Origin: Moniliella sp. 'wahieum'
Taxonomy: Eukaryota
Assembly (NCBI GenBank): GCA_003971905.1
Contig: RSEE01000009.1
Coordinates: 62,001-126,000, forward strand
DNA length: 64,000 nt
Direction: 5' to 3'
Part shown: one piece after another, positions 3,831 through 64,000 of the stretch
How positions within the stretch are numbered: the first letter of the stretch is position 1
Layout of the letters: each line of letters opens with the position of its first letter
The notes under the pieces: generated by a model
Database searches by the model: none
What the model saw: the letters and a program-made list of their open reading frames with translations, nothing else
Told to the model about the DNA's origin: nothing
Program-made: the position numbers and the translations under genes

Positions 3831-4041
3831 TGTTGACCACCAGTGGTCTAGAGCCCATCGGCCTTCAGTGACACGTGGCCCGATCCACACAGTGCACCGG
3901 GGCAGTGAGTTCCGACCCTTCCACGGGTTTCCACTGGCCTCCAGGCCAGGAGCCTATCAAGGCCCATAGCTCTAGCTCTCCTTAGCTCTTGAATGCCATC
4001 TCCATCGACCATCGCCAGCATCGCTAGCTAGGCCTGTGAAA
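3831..4041 (+). repeat. 5' LTR of copia element
   Basis: Starts TGTTGACC and ends GTGAAA; matches 8880-9090. Confidence 0.95.
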
Positions 4042-4187
4042 GAGCTACAATCTGAAGCACCCCACTGGCGCAAAGGATCAATACTCAGCACCACCATCGG
4101 CGCCCACCGTCACCACCACCACCCCAACGCCACCATCGGCACCACACACCAACCAATTCAAAAAAAACAAAGGAAAAATCAGCCACC

Positions 4188-8400: not shown

Positions 8401-9018
8401 CTGGAGACCCTGACCAATGGCGTTCCACGTCGGGATGCCTGCTTTTCGTCTACGGGGTTCCAGTGTCCTGGAGGCGTGCGTCAACCCAAGAGCGTCACCA
8501 ACACTGCTGCGGCCGAATATACGGCGGGATATGAGGGCCTCATTGATGCGAACTACGTTAAAAACATCTTACTGGAGCTCGGTGCCATCACCTCAGACGA
8601 GCCCATACACTGGTACTGCGACAACATGGCGGCACTTGCCTTGGCCGAAAAAGTGGGCAGCACGGGCAAACTACGTGAGCTGAACATCCGGTACCACAAC
8701 GTACGCCAGCATGTCGACTCGGGCGAAGTCAAAATCGCGCACATTGCTGGAAACGAGAACCCGGCCGACATCCTCACCAAACCAGCCACTAAGGTCTCAC
8801 TCCTGGCCAACTTGCCTCGCCTCAAGCTTGAGGACGTTACAACCTTCCATCGTGCCACTGAGACCTCTGGCCAGGGGGGTGTTGACCACCAGTGGTCTAG
8901 AGCCCATCGGCCTTCAGTGACACGTGGCCCGATCCACACAGTGCACCGGGGCAGTGAGTTCCGACCCTTCCACGGGTTTCCACTGGCCTCCAGGCCAGGA
9001 GCCTATCAAGGCCCATAG
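5419..9018 (+). CDS. pol: Pol of copia element (protease, integrase, RT, RNase H), several indels
   Basis: Protease HDSGA and LYVPG..NLTSV; integrase H-x4-H...CPTC, HADVV, KTDNAPE, SNGVAER; RT RARLVAGG, LRKSLYGL, HTDD; RNase H YTDADLAGD, STSG, NPADILTK. The ORF runs into the 3' LTR. Confidence 0.93.
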
Positions 9019-42700: not shown

Positions 42701-44669
42701 CTTCCCCCTGCTTGGAAGAGCTGCCGGAGAGCGAGGATCAGAACGAAGGGGAAACCGCGATCACGGCTGGGAGGTGCCCTACAAGATTTGCCGTGTACCT
42801 TCGAGCATGTGGGTGGGTCTACTGTTCCTTGTGTTACTTCTTCTCATTCTGGCCAAGTTGGCGGATGTTGCGGGAGCCGTGTGGCTGTCGTACGGGTTTC
42901 AGAGCGCGACGTCGATTCTCACAATACATCCTCGTCTGCTGCACCTTTGCGTGGCTCAACGCCAAGACCATCAGACGGAGGGGCGGGAAGGGAGTTATAA
43001 ATCCTCTCTTCTCCCAGGCGCCATGCACATGCCCACCATCTGCTGCCTTGGCCTCCTGTCGGGCACGCCAGCCTGCCTTACCTCCTAGTTTTCGCATGCC
43101 TACAATGATGTCGGCGGGGGCGTCGGCAGGGTTCGTAGCTCTTCTAGCCTTCGTGGGCTGTACGGGCGTCCCGACGGATCTTTGGGTTGATGATAAGGGC
43201 GTCTGCAACGCGCCCCTCACCTGGCTCGATACCCTTCCCCCCGGCCACTTTCTCACTCGTTTCTCGTTCTCGGGACCTGGATGTACTGGACGGCCAGTTG
43301 ATTAGGTGGCCATGCAGGTAGGGAAAGCTTTGTTGCATTCTCGTTGCTTGGGGTGCGCTGCTGGTAGCTTTGCCGGCCATGACTGTTCCCGCAGGGGGTG
43401 TGGGCTACTCTTTTTCTATTTGATCAAGCACTACCTTCCGGCTTCACGGGACACTCGCCGTCTCGAGTTTGCGGCGCGCTCGCCTGTGCTCAACCGCTAT
43501 ACCGAAGCCATCCGTGGGGGAGCGACAATTCGAGCATTCGGTGCCGGCCCACGCCTAGCTAAGCCGTCTACGCTCCTTTGGATCGGGCCAATTCGCTGCA
43601 CTATTATTGGTGGATGTGCAATGCCTGGCTCCTTCTTCGTGTTGACCTGGTGGCAGGCGCCAATGTTTTCCTCGTCCAGATCCTGACGCTTTGGCTCCGC
43701 ATCCCCCCCGCCTTGGCCGCGATCGCGATCACCCAAAGTGCCAGGTACACCGCTTCACTTTACCAGGTAGGGCGGTTCATGGCGACGTTGGAGCAAGATC
43801 TCACAGCTGTTGAGGGGTCGTCAGCCTTGTCCCGCCCTACATCCCACAAGAGGAGAACAACATTCCTACGTGCCTACCTTGCGCTTGGCCTACAGGCGAT
43901 AGCATTCGCTTTGAACATGTTTCCGTCAAATATGGACGGAGGAGATCTTGCATGATGTGTCCTTTTCCCTCCGCAGAGGAGAGAAGGTAGGCATTGTGGG
44001 TCCCAGTGGAAGCGGGAAGAGTACTCTGCTCCAAGCATTGCTGCGCGCCGTCGATCCAGACCAGGGTGATATCCTTCTGGACGAAATCAACCTACGCACT
44101 GTCGCTCCCGGTACGATCCGAGCAAAGGTGATGTACCTCCCCCAGGAGCCTCTATTGTGGCAAGGGAGTCTACGGGAGATCCTTGATCCCCACCAAGAGG
44201 CGGACGAGACCAAGTGTCTTGCAGCCTTGGCAAAAGTTGGTCTTTCGCTTCCATTGGACACGAACATTGAACCCCATGGTGCTAACCTAGCCGAAGGGGA
44301 GAGGCAGTTGGTCGCCCTGGCCCGGGCACTGATCAGTCTGTCTCATCCCAACGGGTGCTTCTCGCCGACGAGCCTACAGCCCATGTCGACCCGCACACAG
44401 CCGAGACGATCCATCGCGTATTGAGAGACCAATATGCGTCTCATCTTGTTCTCCTCGTCGCCCATCGGCTGGAGAGTGTTATGGATTTGGACCGCATCCT
44501 CCTCCTGGACGCAGGCAAAGTGGTCGAGTTTGATGTGCCTGCAGTCCTTCTTTCACGCGACGGTCCGTTTCGCCGGATGGCGATACAGGCAGGACTTGCT
44601 TTAGCCTGCCGATCACTGCACGTCGTTCTTTCGGGTCATTTTTTGTGGTCGATGAACCGACCTTCTTGA
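39789..44669 (+). CDS. ABCC/MRP-type full ABC transporter (TMD-NBD-TMD-NBD), heavily frameshifted
   Basis: Walker A GPTGSGKS and GPSGSGKS; PWIQAGTIRNNILFG; LSGGQRARVALARA; RRLEFAARSPV; GATIRAFG; DEPTA; VAHRL. 5' end uncertain. Confidence 0.85.
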
Positions 44670-44758
44670 ATCTTTTCCTGCTACCGGCCGTGCTGTTTTT
44701 TCCTGAAGAACTCTTGATATATAGGATCGGCAGGCCTGCCGTTATTCTCAACACTGTC

Positions 44759-47474
44759 TCATCGAATCCATGGGTGTTTCCGAGATGTTGCTACGCGGTC
44801 GCCAGGGCGGGGACGACCATGGCTGCTCAGAGGGATGAAGTACAATGATCTCGAGGGAGACAATGCGATGCCCAACGTAGAAATGGGATATTGAAGCGAG
44901 GCGGAGAGTTCATCCGATCGTCGTATCTCCCTCCTCATCGGGGCGGTAGGATGACACAGTGGACGCCTTGGTCCCAGTCTCATCCGAAGAGGAGCATGAG
45001 GAGGACATTGCCATCGTAGGAGGCGCCGATGGCCAGTCACACGGACATGGTGACCTGGCATTATCCATCGACGCTAGGGCACTGGAATCGGAGATGGCAA
45101 GGCTAGCTACTGGGGCAGCACTAATGCTCCCCCTGGGGGGGCGCATTGGGGATGAATCCGTCCCCTCGCATTGAACCAGGCATAGGGCGGGGAGCTGGAC
45201 AGTAACCCGTTATTCGGAAGGGAGGCGGCATGATTGGATTGACTTGGTTGCGTCGTCCCTCTCCTGCCTCGAGTGGCTTGCCTGTTAACCCTCCACTGTG
45301 CGAAAGGGGTTGAAGCATCGCTTGTGAAGGGCCGGGCGAAATGTGCTGTCCCTTACCCAACCCACGAGCCATGGCCTCAAACGCAAACGAACCACCTACA
45401 CCACTGGCACCTCGGTGACGCTGGGGAGGGGAGAGCGGAAGGCCTAGGGAAACCCCACCACTGAGACCACCGTTGGGGTTGCGTGGCCATCTCCTGGATC
45501 GCGGTGGGTCGGGGGCGAGAGAAGAGCATCCTCCCTTTCTTGGCATAGATCCTCAATCAAAGAGCTGGCTGATTGCGAGCGATTAGAGAGGATCTTTGTC
45601 GCACGGAAAAACTCGCCTCGAATAGTGTAGAGCCCATCCTTGGTGACAGGACGGGAAACGTTGATGTTCTGCGCAAACGGATCTTGAATGCAGAGCTCCC
45701 CAGTAAAGTTAATGTCATCTTTCGGGAACGTTCCATGGGGTGTCCTGATACTAAGCACATCGTGAGCGTAAGCAAACTCTTTGCTAAAGAAAGCAAAGAA
45801 GCCCATCAGGAGGCTGGCCACGTTCTCCCGGTTGTGTGAGCGCCACTCAGACCGGACCCGAGCAATGTCGTCGTAAAGTACACATCGTGCCCCTGGAGAG
45901 TGTGGGTTATTGATCGGGGCGACAGGTCCATGTGCTGCAGGTTAGGAAGAACAGGAGGATGCTTGATGTGCATCAGATAGTAGAGCGCCATGAGAGTATA
46001 CCCGTACGACGAGAGGGTGCCAGTGTACGGAGAGTTGAGTTTTCGCCGCTTTGCCCATACCTTGAGGAAAAGCACTAGCGTCCTTACCCTGGGAGGGTCG
46101 ACCATGGCGTAGCTGAGCAACAGACGCGTGTTCTCCAACGCCAGTCGGTTCTCAAACCCAATATCGCATGAAAGTTCGTAGGGCTGTGTGGCCGAGGCAG
46201 CTACAGAGGGGTTAGCGTACATACCCAAGTGGGGGCAAGGTAGGGCGTACGTTTGTGGATTTTGATGATTGGGATCCGAGCCTGCGGAAGGGGCATGACG
46301 TTGAAATCGGTCTGGTCGCGAATAAGGTGCGCAAATTGTTCTACCAGCTCCCTGGCTCGTGCGGCAGAGAGGGGTGGAACATCAGTGCCTGGAGGTGCAG
46401 GAGGATGGGCATCTCCTTGTTCATGGGCGTCCGGGTGAGCGACTGCGTCCGATATAAGGCAGCACAAATCCATGTCCGAGTTGCGTAGAGCAAAGCCGTT
46501 GGCCATGGAGCCAAAGGCGAGCAACGAAGCATGTGGGTCGATCTGCTGCGCGAGACGTTGCAACCGTCTTCGCAGGGCCTCCTTAATTCGATACTCCTCC
46601 TCGGTAGGTAGGAGGGGTGAGAGAAAGGAAACGATCGCGCGAGTCAGGTCGACTTGGTGCTGTTCGAGAGCAGCATGAAATCGTCCGCCAGAACGGTGAT
46701 TGTATCCTGCCGTGCGCGGGATGGGGATGGCCCCCTGCTCATTCCCGCGACTGGAGACCGGAGAGGGGTGCACCGGGAATACCGGCCATGGGCCCCCACC
46801 ATGGGTCGGGCAGTGGGCGGGAGGGGAGAGGGGGGAGACGGACATGGGAGGACGATGCTGGGGGAGCGGTGGCGAAGCTCTCGCCCGAGTCGGACACGTC
46901 AGAGTGGGCGGATGACGAGGGGGCGCTGCTGCGGGTGTGGCGTCCGACAAGGCAGGTGACGTGGCGGAGGGCGAGTAGTAAGAAGCTGGGCCGCTGGTGC
47001 AGGTGGCGGTGAAGAGGCCATTGCGGAGAGCAGGGATCAGGCGGGAGCGCGACTCGCGGGGGGTGGCCCAGGCTGACAGCGCCGCACACCACCGGCAGAT
47101 GTTCCAGGCGGCAGGGGCAGGGGGGAGGGAGATGGGGGGGATGGATAAGGAAATGACGATGGAGATGGTGACGACGATGGGGATGGGGATGGAGATGGAG
47201 ATGGAGATGGAGATGGAGATGGAGATGGAGATGGAGATGGAGATGGAGATGGGGTGGGATGGGAGGTGCCAGAGGTGGCGTTGGGCCGCAGCACGTCCAG
47301 GTGGTTCCTGCCTGGGCCACATGGGGGCTGGGCTGCTGGGTTGTAAAAGCCACTGCATGCAATGCAATGAGCCACATGCATACGTAAGCAGCGCCACGCC
47401 CCCTTTGGGCCGGTGGCCTCCGTCTGCTGCTTTTGCATCGCCACGCAGCGCACCGCCGATGGGTATCCATGCAT
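44759..47474 (-). CDS. Cid1-family non-canonical poly(A)/poly(U) polymerase
   Basis: FGSMANGFALRNSDMDLCC (hG[S]...DhD), ARIPIIK, CDIGFENRLALENTRLL, KVWAKRRKLNSPYTGTLSSYGY, CIQDPF. Low-complexity N-terminus; ends approximate. Confidence 0.9.
47176..47251. repeat. Hexamer repeat (GATGGA/GATGGG)n in the 5' part of the Cid1-like gene
   Basis: About 12 units; probably encodes (PS)n or (HL)n on the minus strand. Confidence 0.9.
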
Positions 47475-47699
47475 TCGCACGCCTCCCGCAAGCACAGCCC
47501 CCGACGCTATGCCAGCCACCTCAGCAGCTCCGCCAGCACCCGCACCAGCAGCCCCACTGGCGCCCACACAGCGCCAGTGCGTGTGTTCCCAGCGCATCTA
47601 GCCCCATTCCCCCCTGGAGAACGCCCACTGCCGTAACGCGTGTCCCGTCCGCTGAGCCATCCCCACTCACGCTGGGTCCCCCAGTCACCGACGCTGTCT

Positions 47700-49864
47700 T
47701 CCTAGAGACGGATTGAAGCGAGTGCACCATCGTTTCCAATGGAGGTCCCACCAGGTTGGGCGTGCTGCACCACACCCCTAGCACAAGGAGCAGCCCCATC
47801 AGCCTCACAGTCCGCCCGTTGCCAGATAACCATCCCGCCATGTGCAGTGCACTGTCCTGGCGCAGGGTTATCCTCTGTTCCACCGCAAGGGGGAGAGATA
47901 CCACCCCGTTTTGTTCAGAGTGAGAAAGCTCTTGTCGACCGGATCGACACACATCCGCATGCTGCCCATCGTCCTCACGTCGCCATGAGTGGTGATACGT
48001 ACCCCCTCCACCGGAAGCGAAAGCATAGGCAAATGCACCTCCTTGTCGGGGATAAATTGCCACTGAAACACAACTTCTTGCGTGTGCGGTGGGAGTGAGA
48101 GAGGGTTAGTTCGACCTTGCCTTCATTGAGGGGGATCGAACTCCGGATCCCCATGGCCGTGAACGTGACATTATCACCGTTAAGGAAAGTGAGAGTAATT
48201 CCGGGCCCATAGGGCGCAGGAAGAGGAAGCTGAAGCTTCAACGTCCCTTTTCCGCGGCGGGAGAAACAAGTAGTTCCACTTCGATGCCCGGGATGACCCA
48301 TTCTGACTTGTCCCCTAATGGGGGAAGGGAACAATTCAGTCCCTCTACAGGAGGTAAGTACTTGGGCTCCGTCCAAGCGCAGCGGTGGCTGTGCATCAAT
48401 GGTCACTGACGGAACAGGGCCCATTCCACACGCCTCCACTTGCGGGAGAGAGAGGCCCATCTGGCCGTTCGGGGCGATCATAGGGAGCAGCTGCATTTCA
48501 CCAACAAGTTGTACCGTCACCTGTTTTGGCGGAGGAAATAGATGCGCCCCGACCACGAGTGGGTCGAGGAGGAGTTCACATCGGTCGCTTTTCACTGATT
48601 GCCCAGGTAAAAAGATGACTTGCCATTTCCTTCAAGACTGTCAACCAGAGTGAGAGCATTGGACCGGTCTCGCTCCATGTGGGAGGAAGAGGAGAGGATG
48701 AGAAGGCTTCTCCCTTCATGTGAGAGGCGTCCGTGCCTTCCTTGGTTTTGAAAGACGAGATATGAAGTATGCGCTCTCCATCACAAGAGAACGAGAGGGC
48801 AGCACTGTATAGGTCAGCATGGAATTGTAGGTAAGACGTCAAAATGGACATACTTAAGACGAGCGGCAGGAGCCATGACCGGCAAGTGCAAGCCACCAAC
48901 CACAAGATCGAGACTGAATGCCACGCGGGACCAAGGCCACATAGTAGGCGGTAAGAGAGACACTTGCATTCGAGCCACCTGCACATGGTCCACTCGAAAC
49001 TGGGGGGCTTCCCAGGCGGGGTCCTAATATGGTCCCCAGTGAACCTGAATGGGGTCAGAACCTGGGGCAAGCACGCCTTGAGCTATTACCCCCCCTTTCG
49101 AGGGGTCGGGCAAAGAAAACGTTCCTCCTCTATATGATCAACTTGTGGGTTGACCTTCATCAGCACTTCGTTCCGGCCTTGGACGAGCGGGTAATCGAAG
49201 AGGATGCAGTGATCGGATCAAAGTGGACACTGCATGGAGGCGTGGAAGATGGAGAAGTAGGGATCGTGCGGTGGGGTGAGAAGATAGGCGATCCGGGCAT
49301 GAAATGTAATATGGAATGTCCTCGTTTTTTTTCCTCTCGTCCTTTGCTCAGGGGGATGTGAAGAAGAAACCGCGTCTGATGTGCAGGTGAGATGGGCTCG
49401 AGAACGCATGTTGGACGACGGGGTGGAAAGGGATTGGGTCCTAGTCGAGAGGGGAGGGAGATGCACCACCTGGGATCACGCATCTTCATTGTCACGTGCG
49501 CTGGAATGGACAGGAGAGAAAAAATTCGCCCTCAAAGGAAGCGATGGGCGCAGGCGGAGAGAGAGCAGCACGTAGTCCGCTCGGCGCCAGGAGCGGCAAT
49601 GGACGCGAGACTCTGCTCTTGGGCGCATCTGGCGGCAGGGCCCAAGGAATGAGAGGGAAGATGGGGGCAGGGCGGCGGCCAGAAGGCAGCGCCAATGAAG
49701 AGAAGGTGGGAGATAATGTGCGTCCGGAACTGCGTGTGTGGCGCCTTCGTGGCGACGTCATTCGAGAATTGGCGGCGGCGATGCTGGCGGTGAGGGTGGC
49801 AGTGGCCGCAAACTCTGCTTCGTGCCTGTTTCGCCGACTGGACGAGGGTGATGCATGATGCATG
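47700..49864 (-). CDS. Hypothetical protein (chained frameshifted ORFs)
   Basis: Consecutive minus-strand ORFs 49492-49893, 48576-49070, 47975-48595 and 47868-48071 with protein-like composition and a short hydrophobic stretch near the C-terminus. No motif recognised. Confidence 0.4.
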
Positions 49865-50661
49865 TGCATGGTGGACCCAAGGACCCAAAGCACCCCCCTG
49901 TGCTGTGGTGCTAGCAGCAGTCACGTGACAAGCTGTCGCAGTGACTGTCACCACTCCGACTGCGTTGCTGGGTCCCAGTAGGCTGAGCAGCGCTGAGCCG
50001 CTGAGCCGCCACGTGACTGCATCACACGGGGCGCCACATTTCATTGTTTCATGCGTACACTTCCGAGCTTGCTGCTTTCCGTGCGGTTATATCGATTACC
50101 CATACCCCGGTCCTCCGTCCTGACATGCACACCATACAGGCGGTCGTGCCGCCCCGATCCACGGGAGTGGCTTCAGGACTCGTAGCTGCTCCTCCTAAAT
50201 CCCTTCCAGCTTCCGGAGAACCACAAAAAGATGTATACTCCAATCAAAACTCTTATATATATTCTTTTCTCCCTCTCTCGTCCAACAGTGATTCAAGCTT
50301 CTTGCCTACCCTCTCCATCATCTGCATCATCACTTTCGTCTGGATCAGACCCATATGGTTCCGCATAGTCATCCTGTTGACTGGTCCCTGGTTTATTCTA
50401 GACCCTGTTTTCCCCCTTTGCCTATCCTTTCTCCCATCTCCATCTCCTGTATATATTAGTCTGCGAAGGGTAGAAGCATGTTATGTCTGACGTATTAGTG
50501 TGTCACTCTGTTCACATATCGACGACGTTGATCTCGACAAACCCGACTGAGCCTTTTCTCGACGATAAAGATTGTTGAACGTAGTGTACTATAACAGAGA
50601 CAATATATCCTAACGGAATGTGCTTGTCAGATATCATGTCTGGTCCCTAGGTTATAAGACC

Positions 50662-50990
50662 TGTTGTAATATAGGAATGGCTGACCAATGAATATTGAAT
50701 TGCTCTCTCTCTTACTAAGAAACAGTGAGACACATGGTAAGGAAGATGAGACCTGAGATGCCTATATCACGGCTTGCATGCAACACCGACATGGATGGAG
50801 GCATGTGTATCTCAAGGCGCAGATAGGTACAGTTTCTCCCAAATTACTCTATTGCGCTGCACTGTGGACGCAAGACGCATCAACGCCGACGCATTATTAA
50901 AACATTTTTGTATCCTATGGAGGCATTCGGCCACCCTCCAAAACAAGCTCCGGATATAACTCTTTCCCGACCTTCGTGGTCCCCAAATCC
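50662..50990 (+). repeat. Left copy of a diverged ~330-bp inverted repeat pair (LTR-like or long TIR)
   Basis: Aligns in reverse complement to 57102-57624, e.g. GCATGTGTATCTCAAGGCGCAGATAGGTACAGTTTCTCCCAAATTA and CAAGCTCCGGATATAACTCTTT. Both copies start TGTTGTAATA. Confidence 0.9.
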
Positions 50991-51893
50991 AAGCTTATTA
51001 TGGTGCCCGCTCCTCTGTAGGTCTCCTCGACGGGCAACACTAGAAAGAGGGAATACTGGCAAAATGTCAAAACTCAATACAGCGTTTTCGTATCTCTCTC
51101 TTCCGAGAAGAGAGTTAGTCCGTGGGGGGTGGTTAAGGACTAATCCCAATAAAGATCCACTGCCACACTTGTGATCGTGGCCTGCTTCGTGGTGGGACAT
51201 CGGCTTCAGCCTTTTTTGAAAGAGGGTGTTGATAATCCGCGCAAGGCATACTACCCGTGTGTGGTCATCAGGTTGACGGTGAAGAATGAGGTATGAAGTG
51301 GAGTGTTTCCAACCTCTGTCTCTGCTTGTAACAGTCGGGGCTAGACAAGGGAGACCAAGGTCTTGTCAGAGACAGGGGGGATGGCAAGATAGTCCGTGGG
51401 AGGAACAGAAGGCATCGGAGAACAGAGGCAAAGGGGACAGAGAAGAACAAGATACACGGGATGCAGATGTGGATATCGGAGCGAGCTTAGTCATTCGGTG
51501 ACACTGCTCCTCTTCAGTGATAAGAGCTGCACTCAGGTTCGGGTTATCGGTTACCGGGCAAGAGAGGTTTTGATGCGCGAGAGTCGCTGTATGATCCTTT
51601 TGTAGATGAGTGTGCAACAGAGATTCACGAATACTAATAAGCACCTCTCTTTCTACGTTACGGTCCGTGGCTTGTGTGGGTCGCGTGTGTTGAACAAAAG
51701 AATCCGTTTCTACGTGTTGAGCAAAGGACGAAGATAGGGTGTGATGAAGGAGGAGATTGGGGAAGTGGTTCTGGTGAGAGTACAGAGGAGGCTATGAGAA
51801 GAAGGGTAGGTCCACGGGCGCTGGTGAAAATTAATATTTTGCTTAGATGACCACATCACCCAAAATGAGTAAATTTTTACGAATATTACCTTG

Positions 51894-52062
51894 GCACTTT
51901 GGCCACATGAGGTTAAGCGCTTTGGCCCAAGAGATCAAGCGCTTTGGCCACATGAGATCAAGCGCTTTGACCACATGAGATCAAGCGCTTTGGCCACATG
52001 CGTTCAATGGCTTTGGCCACATGCGCTCAAGCGCTTAGCCCAAATGCGCCCAAACGCTTAGC
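51894..52062. repeat. Subterminal tandem array, 23-bp unit GCGCTTTGGCCACATGAGATCAA x~7
   Basis: Seven recognisable units, degenerating rightwards, starting about 80 bp inside the left terminus. Confidence 0.92.
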
Positions 52063-52199
52063 TGTTGATTGGATGCGTGCTTGTAGGCTTTCTAACCGGC
52101 TGGTTGGATGGGGCTGGCATCGATCCAGAACTACTAGATTTATAGGCAGGGTAGGTATTTTTTAGGTGTAGAATGCATTCGAAGATCGCTGGGAAGCGA

Positions 52200-53200
52200 T
52201 GACACGGCAACCACTGTTAGGTGTGACGTCAGACGGAAGCACCACAACGTAGTAGAGCAGCGAGCGGTTCAAAAAGTGGCAGGTTAGTGTGAGGGGAGTG
52301 TGCACTAGGGAGACGCTGGCCAAGTCAGCAGCAGCATAGGGTTAGCGAGAGACACAGAAAATGTGCGACGGACTCACGGGTCAGGCGATGAAGACGGCCA
52401 GTAGCGAGGGCAAGCGGGATGAAGTCGGAATGTACACTGATAGGGCGAACAAGGTTAGGAACAGCGTTGGCATATAACAGAAGGGACTTACGACCGCGAA
52501 ACAGGTCAGGTGAGTTGAGGCGAGCAAGGCGAGATGAACCAACCGTGGGATTCCGTGCATGCAGCAGCTGGGCAGACAGTGTCAGTGGGCAGGATATAAC
52601 TTCAAGCGCGAAGTACGGGGGACGTACGATAGCAAAAGGCAGACCAGCCAAGCGAGAGAACCACAGTCGAGTCAAAAAGTGAGAAGACGGACAAGGGTGG
52701 GCCGAAGGCGAGCGAAACGGTGCATGCACGTCACGCATGCGACCCACAAGGTCAGCAGAAGTGAGGGGAATGCGGAGGAAGCGGGCACGTACGATGACAC
52801 TGCGGACCAGAGGTGAAACGAGGGCAAGATGACCCGCGAGGGGGAGTCTGTGTAGGCGGGGTCAGCAACAGAGCTCTGGCGGGCAAAAGAACACGTACGA
52901 CAAAAGCAATGCAGACAGTGAGAGGGGGACGGGGCGAGAGGCAGAGGGGGCGTCCAACAGCGATACTGACGAGGCGAGGAGGACGGAGTGTGGCGGGAGA
53001 GGTGCAAGCAGCAACGATGGTGATATTGATGGCCAGGGGAAGAAGATGGTGCTTTTGCGCCGTGGCACAGAGCACTCTGCGATGTGTTGGCTGCAGAGAT
53101 GGGATACTGGTTGCTACGGGCGCAATGAGAGGGGCGGTGGTGAAGAGACAGGATGCAACCACAGAGGAGCAGGAGGTTAAAAGGAGGCGCGCGTGTGGCG
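52200..53200 (-). ncRNA. Putative multiply spliced, apparently non-coding transcript inside the transposon
   Basis: Four complete short introns with donor, branch and acceptor on the minus strand (52848-52898, 52568-52627, 52437-52491, 52316-52377), plus a fifth donor and branch (52792/52751) with no nearby acceptor. No ATG in the first two exons. Ends not defined. Confidence 0.5.
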
Positions 53201-54342
53201 CAGCCAATCTGTGCGCACAGGCCAATCTGGGCCACGCCAGGGGCCTAGGTAAGCTATAGTATATATGTCTAACGCCTCAACACTAGCGGCCCCCTGCAGC
53301 AGTGTTCGAGGGTCTAATCATCTCAATCAAGAGCGCCATTTTGACTTTGCCTATTTGCGACTTGCTGTGGTACTAGTTGTCTGTTTCGACGGTGACTGGC
53401 TTCATCGAACGCGGCGCACTTGCGGCCTCTCTAGCCCCGAGACTCCAAGGGCTCCCCGAAGGTTGCTGATGCGCGCGTAAGTCAACGACTAGTAGCCTTG
53501 TCCAGTAGCCCTCGTCCTGCTTCCTACCACCAACGCCTATCTCTCGCCCGCAATCGATCGCCTACGCTACTGTCCCAAACGCTTCAGCATCCATTGCGGT
53601 CTCCATAACCGGGTGAATCGCTATACAGGTCACGATTATCCTCACTTGAGCTTTACTAGTGACTAGTGACCTATGGTGTTACATCAAGTGTTACGTCAAG
53701 CTTCAAGTGAATGGGCACCACATGACTTTTTACAAGCTGGGGCGAAGCCCCAGCTGCCCGGGCCGTAGGCCCGGTGGTCGCCTTGTGACTTGTTATGTTC
53801 AACGTTCACGCAAGATGCACCAAAGTGCTTGCGATATACGGTGAGACGAACCGCATCAGTATGGTCTGTGTGTTTCGACCAGGGGCTATCGTCCCTGATC
53901 GAGGTGAAGGAGCTCCGGTGTTGTAACCATTCCATTTAGCTTTTGTGTTGGCTTTGTCCATGATCTCCGCAGCCCTAAGGTATATAGCCTCTGTTGCTCT
54001 TTCATGCTCCCTTGCATTAGGCGTGTCGTTGGCTGGCGTATTCGACCATCATACTGCCAACACTATAGTGCTACCGCATCACCCATCAGGGTGGCCATCT
54101 GGACTGCTCCACTCTCATCTTCAGATAGGGGATCACGAATGTAATACGCCTTGGAAGAGCATCAACGAAGCGGGAGAGCGTGCGTCTCTGGGAGAGGGGG
54201 CAAGTTTTAAGTTAGAGGGGACAAGGGTTAAGGTTAGAGAGGGCCGCGATCGTCTGCCGGACCTGTGACAAAAAAAGCACCCAGCAATCCATATCATATG
54301 TACAACCCATCTCGCCCATAATTTTACCAAGTCGCCACCGCC

Positions 54343-56477
54343 ATGTTTCGACGTCGGCTCACCAAAATGCCGACCGATGGAACGAGCCGCACGCGTGCAC
54401 AATAGGACAGACGCATCTGCTGTACCTTTTCCCGCGGCCTGGTTCACCATGAAGCAGGACGAGAGGTTGCTGTACCAGTTCCCTGCTTGCCCAGTTCGAC
54501 CGATGTCCGGTTTCATGCACTCAAGCACACGAAGGTGCGCAGGTACAGCCAAAACGTGGTGCTGGGTGCGAGGATGGGGGCCAATCACGCCATTGACGAG
54601 GTGGCCGAAGATGCGAGCATGCCCCAGCCACCTGACGCATGCTCGCCTTCCCCTGTGCTTCCCGTGCCTCCTCGCCTGTAGACACTACCATGGCCGAGGA
54701 CGACTTATGCCAGACGTAGCCCAGTGTTTCCTTTGGACCACCCTCAAGAGCCCACGGGCGTGTCCTTTGCCGCCCGCGGGCGCATGACAACCCGCTCGGC
54801 GCCCCGAATGAGCGTGTCGAGCAAATCCGCAACCAAGAGACTGATATTCATCAGCGATCTCAACACGGAGGGTATCCCTGGCGCAGAGGGCACCAATATC
54901 CGAGCTAGGGGTTTGTTGGCTAACCTAAAGACTGGGGTTGGGAAGGATGTGCGCTCTATGCTTGTGGCTCTCCCATTCGCGGCACTCCCCATCCTCGAGA
55001 CCGGAAAAAAGAGGCCAACGATGAGAAGGAGTTCACGTTTCCGGTTCCGCTTTATGACGCTATCGTCGCGGCAGCCGACCTGCATGGTTTGCTTTCCAGG
55101 ACATGGTACCCGGCTGCCGGGCAGGCCAGGGCGCAGTTCATGGTACGTCCCACAGCCTTGGTTGATATACGGGTTTAGACGCTGACATGCCTGTTATGGC
55201 TGGAATAGTACCGGGCGACCCAGACTGCATACCGACTGATCGAACGCCTTTCGAGACTCGGCCCCGACAGCGCCATGGTCGCGACGCGACCGAAGCTCCA
55301 TCTCCTCCTGGCGCATACGTCTGATGCGCTCAAATTGTTCGGCCCTCTCCAGAACACGGACTCTGCCAGATTCGAGGGTCGCGTGAAGCACATCCGTGCG
55401 TCCGTTGCCCATTGCAACTTCCAGAACCTCCCGCGTGACACCTTGTACAACGTCATGGTCGCAGAGAAGATTCTGCACCACTCTTCACCGGGGTACGATG
55501 TGTCTAGTGACGGCTCGGTGGTGGATCGGCCTGGGGCTCCTCCCGGGGTGCTGGAGCAAGGGAAGGAAGAGCCCGACTACAACTCTGATGGCATGGGTTA
55601 GTGCTGGCCCCAGCCAAGAACCAATCCTCGGTGGGTTGCAACAACCTCACCGACGAGGAGCTGGGTCGTTTCCAGTTGGCGGACCGTGTCAAGGTGCGGG
55701 CGCAGTACCTGGTGGGCAAGGCGGCTGTTATCGCTACAGGGGAGATGATCCGTGTGGGGATGAACGTGACGATCGGCCAGAAGTCGGCCGAGTACAGCGC
55801 GTCCGCCGACTTTGTTATTGGCAAAATCCTCCGGATTGGGCGCGATCCGTTGGATGAGAAGGCTGCCTGGGTCGGGTACAGGCCGTACATCATCACGGGT
55901 AGCACGCATCGCTCAGGCTGCCGCATTGTCCGCGAACTCGATGATGGTGATGCTCCTGAAGAGTTTGCCCTATTGACGGTGAGCACCGATGAGTGCTGAA
56001 TCCTCCGGCTGCGTGACGATTGCTCATCAAGTACTGACACTGGGACATTCACCACAGGATGTTGGCAGCGAGGCGCCTCTCCAGCACGCCTGCACCAAGA
56101 AGTGCATGATAGAGCAGGACGGCCAGAAAGTACTGGTGCACAACTACGAGAAGGACCCGATCTCGGGGGAGAACGAGGCGATTGAGTACTTCATCCCGGC
56201 GGCGTCTCATTTTAAAGCCAAGAACGGGAAGCGGCTGGTATTGAACGAATACGCTATGCGAAGTCCACCACACCACAAGCCGCACATGGACTTGAGGATC
56301 AGCTGGAAGTCCCCCAAACTGAGCGCCAACGCGCTGAGCAAAGACGTGGCCCAGAGGATTGCAACGAACGGTGCCATGCACCTGTGGGACAAGCGCGCCA
56401 AGAAGAAAGCACCTGCCGTGGCTGCTGTCGGAGGAGGGGGCAAGAGCGACGACTCTTCGGACAGTGACAGTGATTGA
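54343..56477 (+). pseudogene. CMC-superfamily transposase-like gene apparently lacking its central catalytic region
   Basis: KLHLLLAH...LFGPLQNTDSARFE (H-x4-H before the final E, CMC-type signature), IRARGLLANLKTGVGKDVR, HCNFQNLPRD, LQHACTKKC, LVLNEYAM. Intron 55143-55208. ATG in GCCACCGCCATG context. First two DDE aspartates not found. Confidence 0.7.
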
Positions 56478-57101
56478 TGCGAGAACCAAATGGACATGCA
56501 TTGCGCGATGAGGATGAGTATAGGTTTGGTGGCAGTCGTCAGTCATCAGTAGCCAGGCCACAGGGTGGTGCGCATCCCGGACCCATCAGCCGGAACCTCT
56601 CGAGACGTGAGATCTGAGATGGGGCCATGGGCGGCGCTTTGATATGATGCGAAGCTTCTTTTGCCGGCGAACGAGCCAGGTGACGGATAACTGTCATGCG
56701 TCCCATGCGCAGGGGCATGCCGAAGGGGCGGTTATGGAGTAAGAGGCCAGACGGTGAGGCGTGGGTTGCAGCCCCAAATGCCTGTCGCCACAAGCGTCGG
56801 GTTTCTGCCACCGGCCTCTTCAGCCCCACTCCGCTTATCCAGCCCATCTACCCATTTTCCAATCCCGCCATGACCCATGTTTCAATTTTTCACACCCGCC
56901 CGTGTCCTTGTGTAGCCCTGGGTACTAGGGAACACAGAAGGAACGTTAGGGCGGAGAAGAAGGGGAGCGATGCCAAACACGCAGAATGACATGTGATTGG
57001 GGCATTGTCCTAACAGTAGAGTGTACGTGGCCATCGACACAAAACAGCGCACAAATTCCTTAAGAAAAGTGATGCGTGTTCCACGTTGAGACGTTCAGGG
57101 G

Positions 57102-57624
57102 GGTTTTGGGGACCACGAAGGTCGGAAAAGAGTTATATCCGGAGCTTGTTGGAGGGTGGCCACCGAATGCCCCCTGTCAGAATCACACCGTGATAGGGGG
57201 CTCTTGCCCACTAGGCCCGTATGGGCACTATGGCGTGATTCCTATCAGTTGGGAGATCCTGTGTCCACCTCTCGACTGTGCCTCCTTCCTGAGGAGGTCA
57301 TATACCTCCTCTGCGTCCATAGATGTATGCAATCTATCTGCTTCCCTTCCCCCATCTCCGTCTCCTGACACCCCCATAGGATACAAAAGTATGTGGTCAA
57401 TAATGCGTCGCGCGTTAATGCATAATGCGTCTTGAATCCATAGTGTACCACAATAGAATAATTTGGGAGAAACTGTACCTATCTGCGCCTTGAGATACAC
57501 ATGCTTCCATCCATATCGGTGTTGCATGCAGGCGTGATATCGGCATCTCAGGTCTCATCATCCTTACCATCTGTCTCACTGTTTAGTAAGAGAGGGCCCA
57601 ATTCATTGGTCAGCTATTACAACA
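57102..57624 (-). repeat. Right (inverted) copy of the ~330-bp repeat, interrupted by a solo LTR
   Basis: Reverse complement matches 50662-50990 on both sides of the 57175-57370 insertion. Confidence 0.9.
57175..57370. mobile_element. 196-bp solo LTR (or LTR-like insertion)
   Basis: TGTCAG...CTGACA termini; 5-bp TSD CCCCC (57170-74, 57371-75); the homologous site in the left repeat copy is empty. Confidence 0.88.
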
Positions 57625-58488
57625 CCTAACCCCCGTCTCCCCAATCGACCATCTCTTTCCGTACAGTTGGTGCTGAGGAGGCTGTAATTGATGAAGGGCA
57701 ACGCATCTCTTCCCGACCTTTCCGCGGAGAGGGCCAGTCACGGGCTATTGAGACGGCGTCTTTCCCCAGTGACACATCGGGCACATCCAAACGGCGAGAA
57801 AGCGAAAATCGGAACGAGACATGATACTTAGGGTTGTATTGCCGATGGATGTTTTGTTCTTTGGGCCTCCTCAGCTCCTGCTGGGGGTTGGCTCTTGGAC
57901 ATTGACGCTTGCTTCGTGTCTCGACGCCCTCAGCCCGGCGATTGCAGCGGACGCCATACGCCGGGTCTTCAAACTCCAAGCTTCTCATCGCAACAGTTTC
58001 CCCAGCTTTTCGGCGGCCAAAACACACCAGGGCGGCCACCTTCTTCCTCGGACAGATGACGTCAGGCTGACACCGAAGGACACTCTCCCTGCGCGGTGCG
58101 TATCGGCGACACGTTGTGACCTGTATGTGATGGACTATGTACTTCGTCACTAGCTCGTCACCGGGTCACCAGTCAATGATTTATTGATTATCGATGAATG
58201 ACGCTGAACGTCGAACCCTAGATGGGCACGGACCAGAGGGAGTGGCACGGGGCGAGTGTGGCGCGCTGTCTCATCAACCGCGGCTGACCAATGCTCGCCA
58301 TTGCAGTCGGATGGCATCTCGATCGCGAGTTCGTTTGACTGCCTCCCCAGCATACCCTCCCAGCGCCCACTGGCACGCTGGCCTTGCCCTCGCCGACAGC
58401 ATGCCGACTATTTAAGTCTCGCCTCTCGGTGCCCCTCACCAACGCTCCAAACCCCGCCCCCCACAGCAGCCCGCCTCAGCATCAAAGT

Positions 58489-60059
58489 ATGCCCTCCCAA
58501 GAGGTCTTCAAAGCCGGCCCCGAGAAGGTGGAGTACACCACCTCCAACGGGCGCCCGTACCCGGTGCCTTACGAGGCACAGGGCGTCTCCGCTACCGATG
58601 GTCTTGGCCATCTCTTGGCCCTGCAGGACTTCCACCACATTGACCTCCTCGCCCACTTTGACCGGGAGCGTATCCCCGAGCGTGTTGTGCACGCAAAGGG
58701 TGCTGGTGCCCATGGCTTTTTTGAGGCGACCCATGATATTTCCGACCTTTCGCTTGCCTCTGTCTTCAAGAAGGGCACCAAGTCTCCGGTGACCATGCGA
58801 TTTTCTACAGTGGGAGGCGAGTCGGGCTCCGCTGATACGGCCCGTGACCCGCGTGGGTTTGCCGTTAAGATTCGCACGCAAGAGGGCAACCTTGACTGGG
58901 TCTTTAACAATACTCCTGTCTTCTTTATTCGCGACCCGGCCAAGTTCCCTCACTTCATCCATACGCAAAAGCGCGACCCGCAGACCCATCTTAAAGATGC
59001 CGATATGACCTGGGACTACCTCAGCCAGAACCCGGAAGCGTTCCACCAGCTGATGATTCTCTACTCTGATCGCGGTACTCCGGATGGGTTTACGGATCAG
59101 CATGGCTACTCTGGCCACACGTACAAGTTGGTCAACGATAAGGGCGAGTTTGTCTACGTCCAGATCCATATTCGTGCCCCTGCGTTTAAGACGCTGGACG
59201 GACCTACCGCCGCGCGTTTGGCTGGGGAGAACCCGGATTATGGTATCGAGAAGCTGTTCAACAAGATTGAGGCGGGTGACTACCCCACCTGGAATGTCTT
59301 TATCCAAGTCATGACCCAGGAGCAGGCAGAGAAGTTCCGCTACTCGGTGTTTGACCTGACCAAGGTCTGGCCTCACAAAGGTATGCAATCTCTCGTCCTT
59401 GCCTCGGTTGCCAGCGTAGAAGATTGGAACTGACGACTTTATCCCCTGCAGAGTACCCCCTCCGCCCGATTGGCCAGATTGTGTTGAACAAGAACCCCGA
59501 AAACTACTTTGCAGAGATTGAGCAGGCTGCGTTCTCGCCATCGCACACTGTTCCCGGCTTTGAACCGTCGATGGACCCTGTGTTGCAGAGCCGCCTCTTC
59601 TCGTATCCGGACACTCACCGCCATCGCCTTGGCGTCAACTACCAGCAGATTCCGGTCAATGCCCCGCTGGTCCCTGTGGCCAACTTCCAGCGGGACGGAT
59701 TTATGGCGGTGAATGGCAACCAGGGTGCCCGCCCCAACTACCAATCGACCATTCGCCCGCTGCAGTACACGACCCGTTCGACTGTATCGGTTGCGCACGA
59801 GCAGAAGCTCTTGGGGGGCGTGCACAACTTCCTGTCTCAGGTCAGCGACTTGGACTTTGAGCAGCCCCGGGAGCTATGGACGCGTGTGTTTGATGACACG
59901 GCCAAACAACACTTTATCGACAACGTCTCAGGCCATATTGGCCAGTGCAAGTCGGCCGAGATCAAGCAGCGTACACTCGACGTCTTTGGACGTGTTCACC
60001 CTGACATCCCGGTGCGCATTGCGAAGGCGATCCAGTTTGACTACAAGCCGTCCAAGTGA
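58489..60059 (+). CDS. CAT: Small-subunit monofunctional heme catalase
   Basis: [44 protein letters not shown], heme-ligand RLFSYPDTH. In-frame intron 59381-59451. Confidence 0.97.
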
Positions 60060-60355
60060 GCAGCAGCCATGGTGGTGAGAAATGAACTGGCTTGAAAACC
60101 AAAGTTATCTGGGGTGGGTGTCGTGACGGCCGAGCAACTCCCCAAACATGGCGTAAAGTGCTGGAGGAGGTAACTGGTTGAACGTAGAAGTGTTGAGTTG
60201 AATCAGGTCAAGATAGGATTGTCGTGATTGACGATCGTCGGAAGAGGGGAGCAGCGGAATTTGGGGTTAGAAATGTAATGGCTGCGTGTCTGTTCAGTCC
60301 ATGTCATTTAATAACCGGACAGCAGGCGGTGGCGGCATTGAGGGGGAAGCGACAC

Positions 60356-62335
60356 ATGTGGGGGCAGGTGCGGGGCAAGCTCTTTCATTTCTCGGCGCAC
60401 AGCCACCACCATGCGAGCGCGGGCCGTCGCAGGGATCAAGCAGCTCTTCCCCACGCTGCGGGCAGAGTGTCCGGAAACGATCGAGCGCCTCCCCAGCGGT
60501 CTTGCGGCCCTGGCCGGTCGCCGCGTAGTCATTGATGGCACCCTTATGGCTGTCCGGCTCGCCTATGCCGCTGCCACCACCCACGCCATCCAAGCCGAAA
60601 AGGAAGAAGAGCGACTTCTTAACACACTTCGAGAGCGACAAACCAATTTCTTCCTCAGTCCCGGCACTTCTCCTCCCCCCTCCGATTCGCTCTGGACTGA
60701 AACGGGGCCCAAAGTACCCACTGCCCTCGATTGGTACAGTACCTTCTTTTCTCAACTCGTGCGCAGTCTCCTTTCCCATTCAATCCGCACCACGGTCGTG
60801 CTCGACGATCCTAAGCACAAATTACAAGCCAAGTCGCGCGAAGTAGAGCGGCGTAAACAAAAGCGTGCACTTGATGATTACCGGGCCAAGTTAGAACAAA
60901 GCCGCAACGACCGCTTAGAAAGGCTTCAGAAACGACTGGAGAAATTCACCACCCTTGAACACGCTCGAAGTACATTGCAGCAACACCTGCCCGAAGCGTC
61001 ACATACCCTTGCACGCGCCGAAATCACTGAACCTGTTTCCCATCGGCCCGGCCCGTCCCTGCCAAAGCGTCTGAATTGGATTCCCCGAAGCCCCAACCAG
61101 CCACCTTCGCAGCCCCCCACCTCCTCCAGCACAGGGAATGACCGAGAGCCGCACTCAGGTGGCTCTGAACAAGGCCGAAAAAGATATTGTCGAACGCCTG
61201 TTGGCTCCTACTACACCTGCCCCGGCCTCTCTCCCTCCTGCTTCCAGCCCCGCCCCGCCGGAACCTATCCCGCCACTTGCTGCACCAACACCTCTACGTT
61301 CCCCTGAAGCCGCTGAGCTGCCGCCTACCCCCCAAACTCCACCTGAGCCTGAGCCACTTGAGCCCCATCCTGCCCTTACGGATACGGTCAGGCTGTCCCA
61401 GGCTCAGGACGAGATTCGTTTTCTGCAGCTGGAAAGCGGGCTGCTGCAGAAGCAGTACAAGCTTCGTCAACTCCCACCCATGAACCGGGTCGTCCAGGCG
61501 ACACTGGACGTTTGTGAGAAATACCAGGTCCCTGTCCTGCAGATGCCCAAGGATAAGTCTTGTCTGTTGGAAGCCGAAGCGCTCGCGAGCGCGCTTGTGC
61601 TGCAAGGCTGGTCCGACTTTGTTTTGAGCGAAGACAGCGATGTGGTGGTCTACGGTGCCTCCCTTCTGCGGATCAAGGGTGCCGAGGCGGAGGTCGTGCA
61701 TTCTTCCCAAGTGCGGAAGCGACTATTCTCATACTCACCTGCCCCAGCGAAGGAGGAAGCACTGAACGTGGATGAACATTGGCGCTTGGCTGGCTTGGCC
61801 GGGATGGACGTTTTCCGAAATGGGATCCCCTCCTCCAGAGGAGCTAGACGCTTTGTCCGAAATGGAATCCTCACCTCCCGCTATGCTAAAAGAGGACGAA
61901 GACACCTTACGACAAAGGATGGTTGACTTTGCTATTCTGTGTGGCTGCGACTTTTGCCCCACATTGCCTGGGATCGGTCCCAAACGAGCTCTTTCCGCCA
62001 TCCACACGTACGGCTCAATTGAAGGATTGGTGGCTGCCTATCGCGAAACCGGCAAGCCAAAGACCGGGATTCCAACTGCGTCGGGGTCATGGGAAGCGTA
62101 TCTGTCCCAGGTCCAAGTTGCTAGGGCCATTTTCCTCCAATCGCCTAGCCTCCGTCCGTGGGAAAGGATGCTACGAGAGGCTCAAAAGCAAGCACTCCCA
62201 GTCATCGAGGACCAATCCATTTGCCTTGATGGAAATGAGGAAGCTTTCAACCAGGAGACCCACCCCAATTCCCAACTCAACGTTGCAGATCCAGCATGTG
62301 TGCTGACCTCCTGGCCTCCACCACCCGAGAAGTAG
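60356..62335 (+). CDS. XPG/Rad2/FEN1-family PIN-domain 5' nuclease
   Basis: GIKQLF...VVIDG, VVLD..K...RR, EAEALAS, SEDSDVVVYG, H3TH LCGCDF...PGIGPKRA...YGSIE. Indels near 60420, 61140 and 61800; start uncertain (60356 or 60411). Confidence 0.88.
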
Positions 62336-62863
62336 ATCTTCATACCTCCCATGCAAAACTATACATCACTGCACTGCCTCCCATTCCACTGAATTTCACT
62401 TGCTTCCAACGCCTATAGCGCTCTCCTGCCATATACGCCGGCCCCACTGCTACGGTTAACTACAGGATGGTTGCTCATCAGATCGATAATAGAATTGATG
62501 CTTGATAGAAAAATCAATCGTTTACACTAATCGGCCGAGTGGGAGCAGTGGGATCTGTCTCCAACGTGGGTGAGGCTCGCCTGCCTCGATCCGGTCAAGT
62601 GGGGACTGAACCAATACCTTACATGCTTCCCGACTGACATGCGCCTCTTTGGCTCAATGGTAAGGCGTCGCACTCGTAATGCGAAGATTAGTCGTTCGAT
62701 TCGGCTAGGAGGCATTTTTTTCTTGCTTCGGCCAATTGCACTGTACAAACTTCCAGACACCGAGCTAGCGTATCCAACCAATCTTGTACGCATCACACAC
62801 GCGCCACCTGCTCTCCTGCTCTCCCTACAAGGACGAAGGATGCAAGGGTCGAACGGAGGGGCA

Positions 62864-63432
62864 TTACAGATCCGCCAGTTGAATCTCGAACAACCTCCTC
62901 CACTCCTCCACGGGACCTTGGCAGGACCATAAACTCAAGGAGGTAAATGTCAATCTTTCGCTGAGAGCCGATCGCCACACTCCCTCCCGTTCCAGATCGG
63001 CAATTAGGTCGTCTGCTCCCGCGCCCAAATTCGTATAGGCGAGGGAGACGTGCGGCCAGAATTCCCGGGGGGGGAGAGAAAGCGCGGTGGAGACGCAGGT
63101 GTGAACAGCGCCCAACTCCTCTCCCAGCTCGAGAGGAGGACGAGGGACTGGTAATAGGTGCGCCGGGAGGCGGGCGGCTGCACATGCACGGTGAGGTGCG
63201 TGCGCCCCGCCAGGGCGGTGCGGGCGGCAGAAAGGGCGGTGAGCCAGAGGGCGTGCACCTCGGCGGCGGTGAGGGATGTGTCGCGGGTGAGGCGCGAGAG
63301 AAGCGTCATGTGGGGCGGGACGGGCGGGGAGGAGACACGCGGGTGGACATGGGCCATCACCGCCTCGACGGCGTGCGCATCGGCCGGGTGGAGCTCGAGC
63401 CAGAGCGCGAGACGCTCCCAGCTGGGGGGCAT
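62864..63432 (-). CDS. CPD1: 2',3'-cyclic-nucleotide 3'-phosphodiesterase (2H phosphoesterase, CPDase)
   Basis: ALWL N-terminus, two 2H motifs PHMTL and PHVSL, C-terminal W..QGPVEEW; one indel. Confidence 0.85.
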
Positions 63433-63593
63433 GCCGAGCAGCAGACGACGCAGGGCAGAGTACGATTGCACGCGGTGCTCCGCCCAGCGCCACCACCCCG
63501 GCCCGGAGGAAACCCAAAATCCAATTCCGCCCCGCCGCCCAGCAGCCACAGAATGGGCAAGCAAAGCGCGGCTGATCCCCACCACCACCTCAC

Positions 63594-64000
63594 ATGCCGT
63601 CGGGAGCGTCCGCACGCCCGCCAGATGCGCGGCGACGGGCTGGACGACCCCGCAACAGCAACACCACCACCCCACCAGCATCACCAACACCCACACCCAC
63701 ACCAGCACCAGCACCCACACCGCACCCATCCGGCCATCTCCACCCCCATCCCCACCACCAGCATCTCCCCGCCTCTGCCCCCAGCACCGCCAATACCACC
63801 AGCACCCCCCTCCCCGCCACAACCGCATCCTCCTCCTCCTCCAGCATGCCTGACCCTCCCCCGCCTTCGCCTCCACCACCCGCCCCGAGGCGCATCACGA
63901 GTTCCGCATGGAGGTGATTGACGTCAACCCCGTGTCGATGACGCTGCTTCTCCTCTCCGCCCCGCCCCCCTCACCGCCATCGCCGCTGGCACCTCCACCT
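63594..64000 (+). CDS. Probable 5' end of a gene with Pro/Thr-rich N-terminus, truncated by the window edge
   Basis: Divergent from the CPDase gene; GC-rich ORF MPSGASARPP... No domain recognised. Confidence 0.35.

Follow-up and report, generated by a model that had tools for sequence, protein, structure and literature searches.

The proposed element considered here occupies positions 51813-56904 (5092 bp) of a 64,000-nt stretch of contig RSEE01000009.1, which is referred to below as the window, and the described systems closest to it are members of the CACTA/Mirage/Chapaev group (CMC, also 'CMCT') of cut-and-paste transposons. CNEST of Cryptococcus neoformans is placed in the CMC supergroup and is 7152 bp long, with 33-bp inverted repeats beginning CACGG and 2-bp TA duplications (PMC12810828; bioRxiv 10.1101/2025.05.19.654958), and CNIRT6 of the same species has CACTG ends and 3-bp duplications (bioRxiv 10.1101/2025.05.19.654958). 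Fungal EnSpm elements have CAC..GTG ends and 3-bp duplications; ESTA of the Pucciniales is an EnSpm-like element of the CMCT clade with TA duplications and very diverged transposases that are recognised only by HHpred; and the Plavaka ends published in 2025 are TGT..ACA with 2-bp duplications for PlavakaA and CATCA..TGATG with 2-3-bp duplications for PlavakaB (all PMC12730594). Maize En/Spm and the plant CACTA elements have CACTA ends, 3-bp duplications, and subterminal repeats at both ends in both orientations. Subterminal repeats beside the inverted repeats are a stated feature of CACTA elements, and in CACTA transposases the domain DUF4218 directly follows Transposase_21 (PMC8978399).

Our reading of the stretch is that it is a decayed, non-autonomous copy of a transposon of the CACTA/EnSpm-Mirage-Chapaev group with the ends given in Table 1, and we hold this to be probable, with moderate confidence. 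That the stretch is repeated sequence of a mobile type is very likely. It is most likely a class II inverted-repeat element, and a fairly ordinary kind of mobile element.

The copies that speak for mobility were found in a metagenome. Of three public runs of one study, only X1 contained part of the stretch (share 0.10), and it was mapped at a likeness of at least 80% on positions 44001-64000; no RNA run with the stretch was listed, which gives no information on expression. Of the 42 X1 contigs placed on these 20 kb, 23 have a likeness of 90% or more, and pieces of the element were present at 90-99% identity. The listed pieces cover 52051-52438, 52543-52794, 53198-53365, 53961-54150, 54331-54508, 54545-55555, 55722-56030 and 56051-56288, and the longest of them (54545-55555) differs from the window in 24 of 1008 letters. 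Because these pieces fall in both halves of the element, relatives of the half with the putative cargo and of the half with the gene exist elsewhere, at several levels of identity. The other two runs, X2 and X3, placed 9 and 8 contigs, all of them below 90% identity and outside the element.

One further X1 contig joins position 51941, which lies in the subterminal array, to position 56721 and skips the 4779 bases between them. Its depth is 31.1, compared to 2.7-6.3 for the other listed pieces, and the 22 extra letters at the joint resemble, by eye, the window just to the left of 56721. This contig looks like an internal-deletion derivative that has kept both subterminal regions, in the manner of a miniature inverted-repeat transposable element (MITE). 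Non-autonomous derivatives that arise by internal deletion are typical of En/Spm/CACTA elements, and this contig is the best single argument that both ends belong to one mobile unit. An initial annotation of the window had proposed a mobile element at this position, and that proposal is supported by the related X1 contigs together with the deletion form.

At the borders of the stretch, the imperfect inverted repeats of about 20 bp beginning CAC, the putative 2-bp TC duplication, and the 23-bp subterminal array that had been listed in the initial annotation are all present. The ends are CACGGGCG...CGCCCGTG, with ungapped matches at 8/8, 15/18, 16/20 and 17/25 positions, and a degenerate pattern of these ends is found without mismatches only at these two sites in 64 kb. 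Termini of the form CAC..GTG fall within the 5'-CA..TG-3' description of CMC/CMCT ends (PMC12730594). The 2-bp flanks agree at this one copy, as 1 in 16 flank pairs would by chance, and the 3-bp flanks differ (GTC and TCC), so that the canonical 3-bp duplication of EnSpm/CACTA elements is not seen. The CACGGGCG 8-mer has three copies in the window and all of them are inside the element. The third copy, at 54753-54760, shares the orientation of the left end and precedes by about 30 bp the first ATG in a frame-1 open reading frame (ORF). It was considered as an alternative left end and set aside, as its flanks do not match and one extra copy in 5.1 kb has a chance of approximately 25%.

The array starts 85 bp inside the left end and has the consensus CTTTGGCCACATG[A/C]GATCAAGCG. 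With up to 3 mismatches allowed, its 16-mer core is found 6 times in the array and 7 times in the whole window, where 0.89 occurrences are expected, and this is above chance. The same core gave 97 single chance matches and no tandem arrays when scanned in contigs of prokaryote genomes, and 0 matches in viral contigs. A BLAST comparison of the element with the retrieved loci gave nothing at E <= 1e-3.

The plus strand carries the remnant of a gene. A codon-usage log-odds (LOD) score, trained on genes of the same window that Pfam had confirmed, picked out four open stretches with host-like codon usage, at 54924-55175 (LOD 8.9), 55209-55598 (21.8), 55589-55996 (27.2) and 55983-56474 (27.2), and no further ORF of 45 aa or more within 50500-57700 scored above 6.6. 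Two clean canonical introns separate parts of this coding region, at 55143-55208 (GTACGT...CTGAC...AG) and 55979-56057. Exon 2 contains the motif H31-LLLA-H36-x19-E56, in which the glutamate lies 20 residues past the second histidine. Mouse RAG1 presumably has the identical spacing, with H937, H942 and E962. This motif is the only surviving part of the DDE catalytic domain, which is accompanied by a C-terminal part of the protein; the two Asp regions are absent, as expected of a truncated copy, and the motif is thus no proof of membership. By analogy with the CACTA transposases, the H..H..E stretch would sit where DUF4218 is located.

The initial annotation is supported in calling the copy non-autonomous: of a DDE domain it keeps no more than the H-x4-H...E part, no ATG opens the coding frame, and exons 2 and 3 meet out of frame. 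The coding frame of 54924-55140 lacks a start codon, and the ATG at 55021 misses that frame by one base. In an X1 contig, where 55046 is followed by an additional C, the same ATG is in frame. When the donor GTTAGT at 55597 is joined to either of the acceptors at 55657 or 55660, exons 2 and 3 are out of register by one base (frames followed by hand). Upstream of approximately 54924 codon usage gave no coding signal and Pfam gave no family match. The two Asp regions are therefore missing, and the earlier view that an N-terminal piece had been fused to the C-terminal half finds no support.

The lead to a protein family came from a language-model feature search (Atlas). The 30 best named clusters for exon 2 consisted of 19 without a common family, 5 with PF13960 (DUF4218), and 6 with PF20722 (DUF6830). 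The five rows shown are all from Basidiomycota, with names such as 'hypothetical' or 'DUF4218 domain-containing protein' and scores of 0.94-0.91. This echoes the link to an unannotated basidiomycete family that had been drawn in the initial annotation. A search for PF13960 among the prokaryotic control genomes matched nothing.

Several results weigh against the reading given above, and the first group concerns the ends. The chance level was estimated in 30 simulated windows (Markov-1). A pair was counted if its members lay 0.5-10 kb apart, matched perfectly over the 8 terminal bases and at 15 or more of 18 positions, and had the same 2-bp flanks. The simulated windows had a mean of 3.9 qualifying pairs each, 0.23 of them starting with CA, so the ends and flanks alone are not above chance and evidence from elsewhere is required for the termini. 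In the real window 5 pairs qualify outside the long inverted repeat described below, and only the pair of the element starts with CA. The inverted repeat of the element ranks 8th of the 25 longest shown, among 75 pairs in the region. Within the window no second copy of the element was found, and thus no second boundary or duplication was seen. The listed X1 contigs reach neither terminus, so that the exact ends are provisional, and a metagenome joint with a likeness under 95 frequently stems from another organism or from a repeat. The right end has no 16-mer array core at 3 or fewer mismatches, and the TC duplication differs from the TA of CNEST and ESTA and from the 3-bp duplications of fungal EnSpm and CNIRT6 as these are described. 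The initial annotation had this copy defining the element ends for its family. With one copy, ends at the chance level, and X1 contigs that do not resolve the termini, that claim is not supported.

The second group concerns the protein. An H-x4-H followed by E is a loose motif, and neither of the two catalytic Asp regions nor a credible C(2)C was found in the gene. None of the 47 stop-to-stop ORFs of the element reached the curated cut-off of any Pfam family, and none matched Transposase_21, DUF4218, Plavaka (PF18759) or DUF6830. A phmmer search of exon 2 against 1.84 billion representative proteins returned one match and nothing credible; this match (P0001), a repetitive protein of 252 aa with 31 residues aligned, was judged to be spurious. 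The word-indexed searches were equally negative for exon 4 (longer targets; 563 candidates, none at E <= 0.001) and for exon 2 (longer targets, 481 candidates, none at E <= 10; near targets, 12 candidates, no match). A phmmer search of the PDB gave matches at chance level only, the best being the ABL SH2 domain at E 0.096, with no RAG1 or Transib. The Atlas lead for exon 2 is itself weak by the search's own criteria, with a recognition of 2145 (below 2300), 162 shared features (below 170), and family agreement in 5 of the 10 best family-bearing matches, and the search with exon 3 gave no lead (best 0.76, a bacterial DUF3104). An AlphaFold2 model of exon 2 from the single sequence had a mean predicted local distance difference test score of 43.5 and was unusable for a fold search. 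A metagenome scan with exon 2 was also of no help: 1 of 272 stretches passed tblastn, and that locus (L001) was rejected as a bacterial contig with an ABC-ATPase-like ORF (by eye) and the match in an alternative frame. The label 'transposase-like' for the four-exon coding region with its H-x4-H-x19-E has no profile match behind it. Membership of the protein in the CMC group, as had been assigned before, is not supported by any alignment and comes down to the motif and the language-model lead.

The second unit that the initial annotation placed on the opposite strand is present as four intron-like segments of 51-62 nt. Each has a donor (GTACGT, GTAAGT or GTGAGT), followed by a branch site (CTGAC or CTAAC) and then CAG. 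This is the densest intron-like cluster in the window, with 4 segments in one 2-kb bin and at most 3 in any other, out of 19 in total on the minus strand, and a fifth pair of donor and branch site lies at 52792/52751 without an acceptor. The minus-strand stretch has no codon-usage signal and no Pfam match, and splicing out the four segments in silico yielded no ORF with a start codon, only open frames rich in Ser, Pro and Leu. Positions 52110-53250 are 66% purine on the plus strand, and a high pyrimidine content is the sole reason why the minus-strand frames are open. The minus-strand stretch is most likely either the decayed fragment of a captured gene or a non-coding spliced unit. In plant elements of this kind the two genes are on the same strand.

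Between the purine-rich stretch and the gene half lies a promoter-like cluster of CCAAT and TATA-like boxes, which could serve transcription in either direction.

Of the other explanations, the likeliest takes the stretch for a mobile or repeated element and its proposed ends for an inverted repeat that arose by chance. Its true ends would then lie elsewhere within approximately 51338-51895 and 56810-57340, or the element would belong to another class, such as a Helitron-like unit ending near 53783 or a two-gene unit resembling PIF/Harbinger. We give this a small yet appreciable probability. The simulations, the listed X1 pieces that stop short of the termini, the units on opposite strands, and the missing transposase profile match are all in keeping with it. 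So is the behavior of two X1 contigs that diverge from the window, and likewise from one another, immediately past 53783, which is 9 nt beyond two adjacent, perfect, GC-rich hairpins (folding energy -21.4 kcal/mol, z -5.2, with 0 of 200 shuffles as good) and recalls the geometry of a Helitron 3' end. However, a CTRR end of the Helitron type is not present at 53783 despite this geometry, and the 47 ORFs have no signal of a Rep/helicase or of a Harbinger DDE transposase. The loose-end letters of the X1 contigs at 53783 have no match elsewhere in the window, and this position may mark a breakpoint within the element or the place where a nested unit ends. The deletion form, in turn, connects the array on the left with the subterminal region on the right, as expected of one unit with ends near those proposed. 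Perfect 8-mer CAC... ends, identical flanks, and an adjacent array occur together here, and CNEST is a published precedent for 2-bp duplications at ends of the CACGG type.

The second alternative arises from what surrounds the CACGG element. A long inverted repeat, which is absent from the initial annotation, encloses it, with arms of approximately 315 bp whose segments are 83-96% alike (270 of 303 aligned columns identical), and this is by far the strongest inverted repeat in the window. The whole 6.9-kb structure at approximately 50676-57618 might accordingly be a long-inverted-repeat transposon, KDZ- or Mutator-like, with the gene as its decayed transposase and CACGGGCG as an internal coincidence. 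Terminal inverted repeats of 139-241 bp, as given for the KDZ elements of Cryptococcus (bioRxiv 10.1101/2025.05.19.654958), would be of a comparable kind. We nevertheless regard this explanation as distinctly improbable. By eye, the outer edges of the arms show no clean target duplication, for which 4-8 bp would be expected of a KDZ-type element, no ORF among the 47 matched KDZ, CxC or MULE in Pfam, the Atlas lead is to DUF4218 and DUF6830 rather than KDZ, and the X1 deletion form joins points approximately 130 and 200 bp inside the CACGG ends instead of the arms. The left spacer between arm and element measures 822 bp and the right one 197 bp, and the two are mutually unrelated. The enclosing repeat may represent an inverted duplication, or else an earlier element with long inverted repeats, and the simplest reading is that the CACGG element was inserted into this older structure. 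Cover by X1 contigs is absent at 48003-51337 and 57341-58674, which includes most of the long arms; this is no evidence by itself and is the pattern that nesting would give.

Least probable of all is that there is no transposon here, only a lineage-specific four-exon host gene with an antisense transcript, a minisatellite and coincidental ends, since this would agree with the missing profile match, the host-like codon usage and the single copy in the window, but not with related copies at several identity levels in another sample and a deletion form at higher depth, the lack of an in-frame start codon, the out-of-frame junction, or the Atlas lead to clusters named for a transposase-associated domain.

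If the stretch is a CMC-type element with the proposed ends, a DDE transposase supplied by an intact relative would bind the CACGG... terminal repeats and would probably bind the 23-bp subterminal repeats as well. The same transposase would excise the element and reinsert it with a 2-nt staggered cut, and this would leave the TC/TC duplication. The present copy cannot itself make the enzyme. Its minus-strand intron cluster would most likely be cargo, and the copy would have landed inside the older structure bounded by the inverted repeat of approximately 315 bp. The positions of all these features are given in Table 1.

Table 1. Features of the proposed element and of the structure around it (positions in the window)
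Feature	Position	Strand	Detail or basis
Long inverted repeat, left arm (context outside the element)	50676-50990		
Putative target site duplication, left (TC)	51811-51812		read from the sequence
Terminal inverted repeat, left: CACGGGCGCTGGTGAAAA	51813-51830	+	inverted-repeat search; 18 nt, 83% complementary
23-bp tandem array, about 7 copies; candidate transposase-binding repeats	51897-52059	+	7.1 copies, 85% matches
Four intron-like segments (52898-52848, 52627-52568, 52491-52437, 52377-52316)	52316-52898	-	
Promoter-like: two CCAAT boxes	53204-53208, 53222-53226	+	by eye
Promoter-like: TATA-like run	53255-53266	+	by eye
Two adjacent hairpins	53735-53774		stems of 9 bp and 7 bp; folding
Exon 1, open from 54924; no ATG before the last codon (55140-55142)	54924-55142	+	LOD 8.9
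Exon 2; H-x4-H-x19-E at 55299-55376	55209-55596	+	LOD 21.8
Exon 3	55661-55978	+	LOD 27.2
Exon 4; stop codon 56475-56477; tail rich in Lys, Gly and Ser/Asp	56058-56477	+	LOD 27.2
Terminal inverted repeat, right; reverse complement CACGGGCGGGTGTGAAAA	56887-56904	-	paired with the left end
Putative target site duplication, right (TC)	56905-56906		read from the sequence
Long inverted repeat, right arm	57102-57618		interrupted by a 196-bp insert (57175-57370)

The insert in the right arm has no counterpart in the left arm. By eye, its ends are TGTCAG.../...CTGACA and CCCCC stands on either side of it, whereas the matching place in the left arm has CCTCC once (reverse complement). These features fit a small MITE that is flanked by a duplication of 5 bp.

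The window as a whole is eukaryotic and fungal-like, with exons of G6PD, ubiquitin E1, HSP90, and a poly(A) polymerase-like gene, and the host genome of the element is probably that of a basidiomycete fungus. The remnant of a copia-type retrotransposon lies at approximately 4000-9000, with an ORF at 5688-7655 in which an integrase core (rve, E 1.4e-9) is accompanied by a retroviral SH3-like domain. At 63344-64000 all three metagenome runs place short contigs below 90% identity with loose ends of a CAG-repeat type; this sequence is probably of low complexity or widely conserved, and unrelated to the element. A search of Rfam with positions 48000-60000 gave 0 matches.

If the ends are confirmed, the element would join CNEST as a second lineage of basidiomycetes in which ends of the CACGG type go with 2-bp duplications, here without specificity for TA. 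It would also offer a handle on a protein family that is invisible to current profiles and so aid the annotation of fungal repeats. It opens no new question, as CMC elements, deletion derivatives, and nested insertions are all well known. In practice, the case teaches that chance alone yields an inverted repeat with a 2-bp flank match of such quality several times per 64 kb. We can offer only as a tentative suggestion, rather unlikely in its entirety, that the element and its X1 relatives form an undescribed basidiomycete branch of the CMC/CMCT group that is related to CNEST, lacks TA specificity, has a transposase diverged beyond detection by sequence or Pfam, carries intron-bearing cargo in antisense, and gives rise to abundant short deletion derivatives.

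The element behaves like a CMC element but fits no named family on present evidence. With Plavaka A and B it shares basidiomycete hosts, duplications of 2 bp (A) or 2-3 bp (B), an H(3-4)H before the catalytic E, and proteins mostly named 'hypothetical'. It differs from both in its CAC..GTG ends, which are not those of Plavaka, and in having no match to PF18759. It resembles the plant CACTA elements in its short inverted repeats and subterminal array, and it departs from them in its ends, in the length of its duplication, and in having the array at the left end only. Like the fungal EnSpm/CACTA elements and CNIRT6, it has 5'-CAC..GTG-3' ends, an H(3-4)H before the putative catalytic E, and subterminal repeats, here at the left end; unlike them, it has a putative 2-bp rather than a 3-bp duplication and no profile match to Transposase_21 or DUF4218. 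ESTA is similar in belonging to the CMCT clade, which is also the one proposed here, in its 2-bp duplication, and in its diverged transposase, and differs in that its duplication is TA. The comparison with CNEST, made from its description, is the closest. The two elements have in common a basidiomycete host, the assignment to the CMC group, which is probable here, ends of the CACGG type, and the length of the duplication, which is putative here. They are unlike in that CNEST has TA duplications, 33-bp inverted repeats, and an intact DDE transposase, CNAG_05910, in 7152 bp, compared to TC in one instance, imperfect repeats of 18-20 bp, and a broken gene in 5092 bp here. The termini had been called unusual in the initial annotation, a description that is not supported, given the CACGG inverted repeats and 2-bp duplications of CNEST (PMC12810828). 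CMC elements are known and active in basidiomycetes, and the combination of ends and duplication length proposed for this locus has a published precedent among them.

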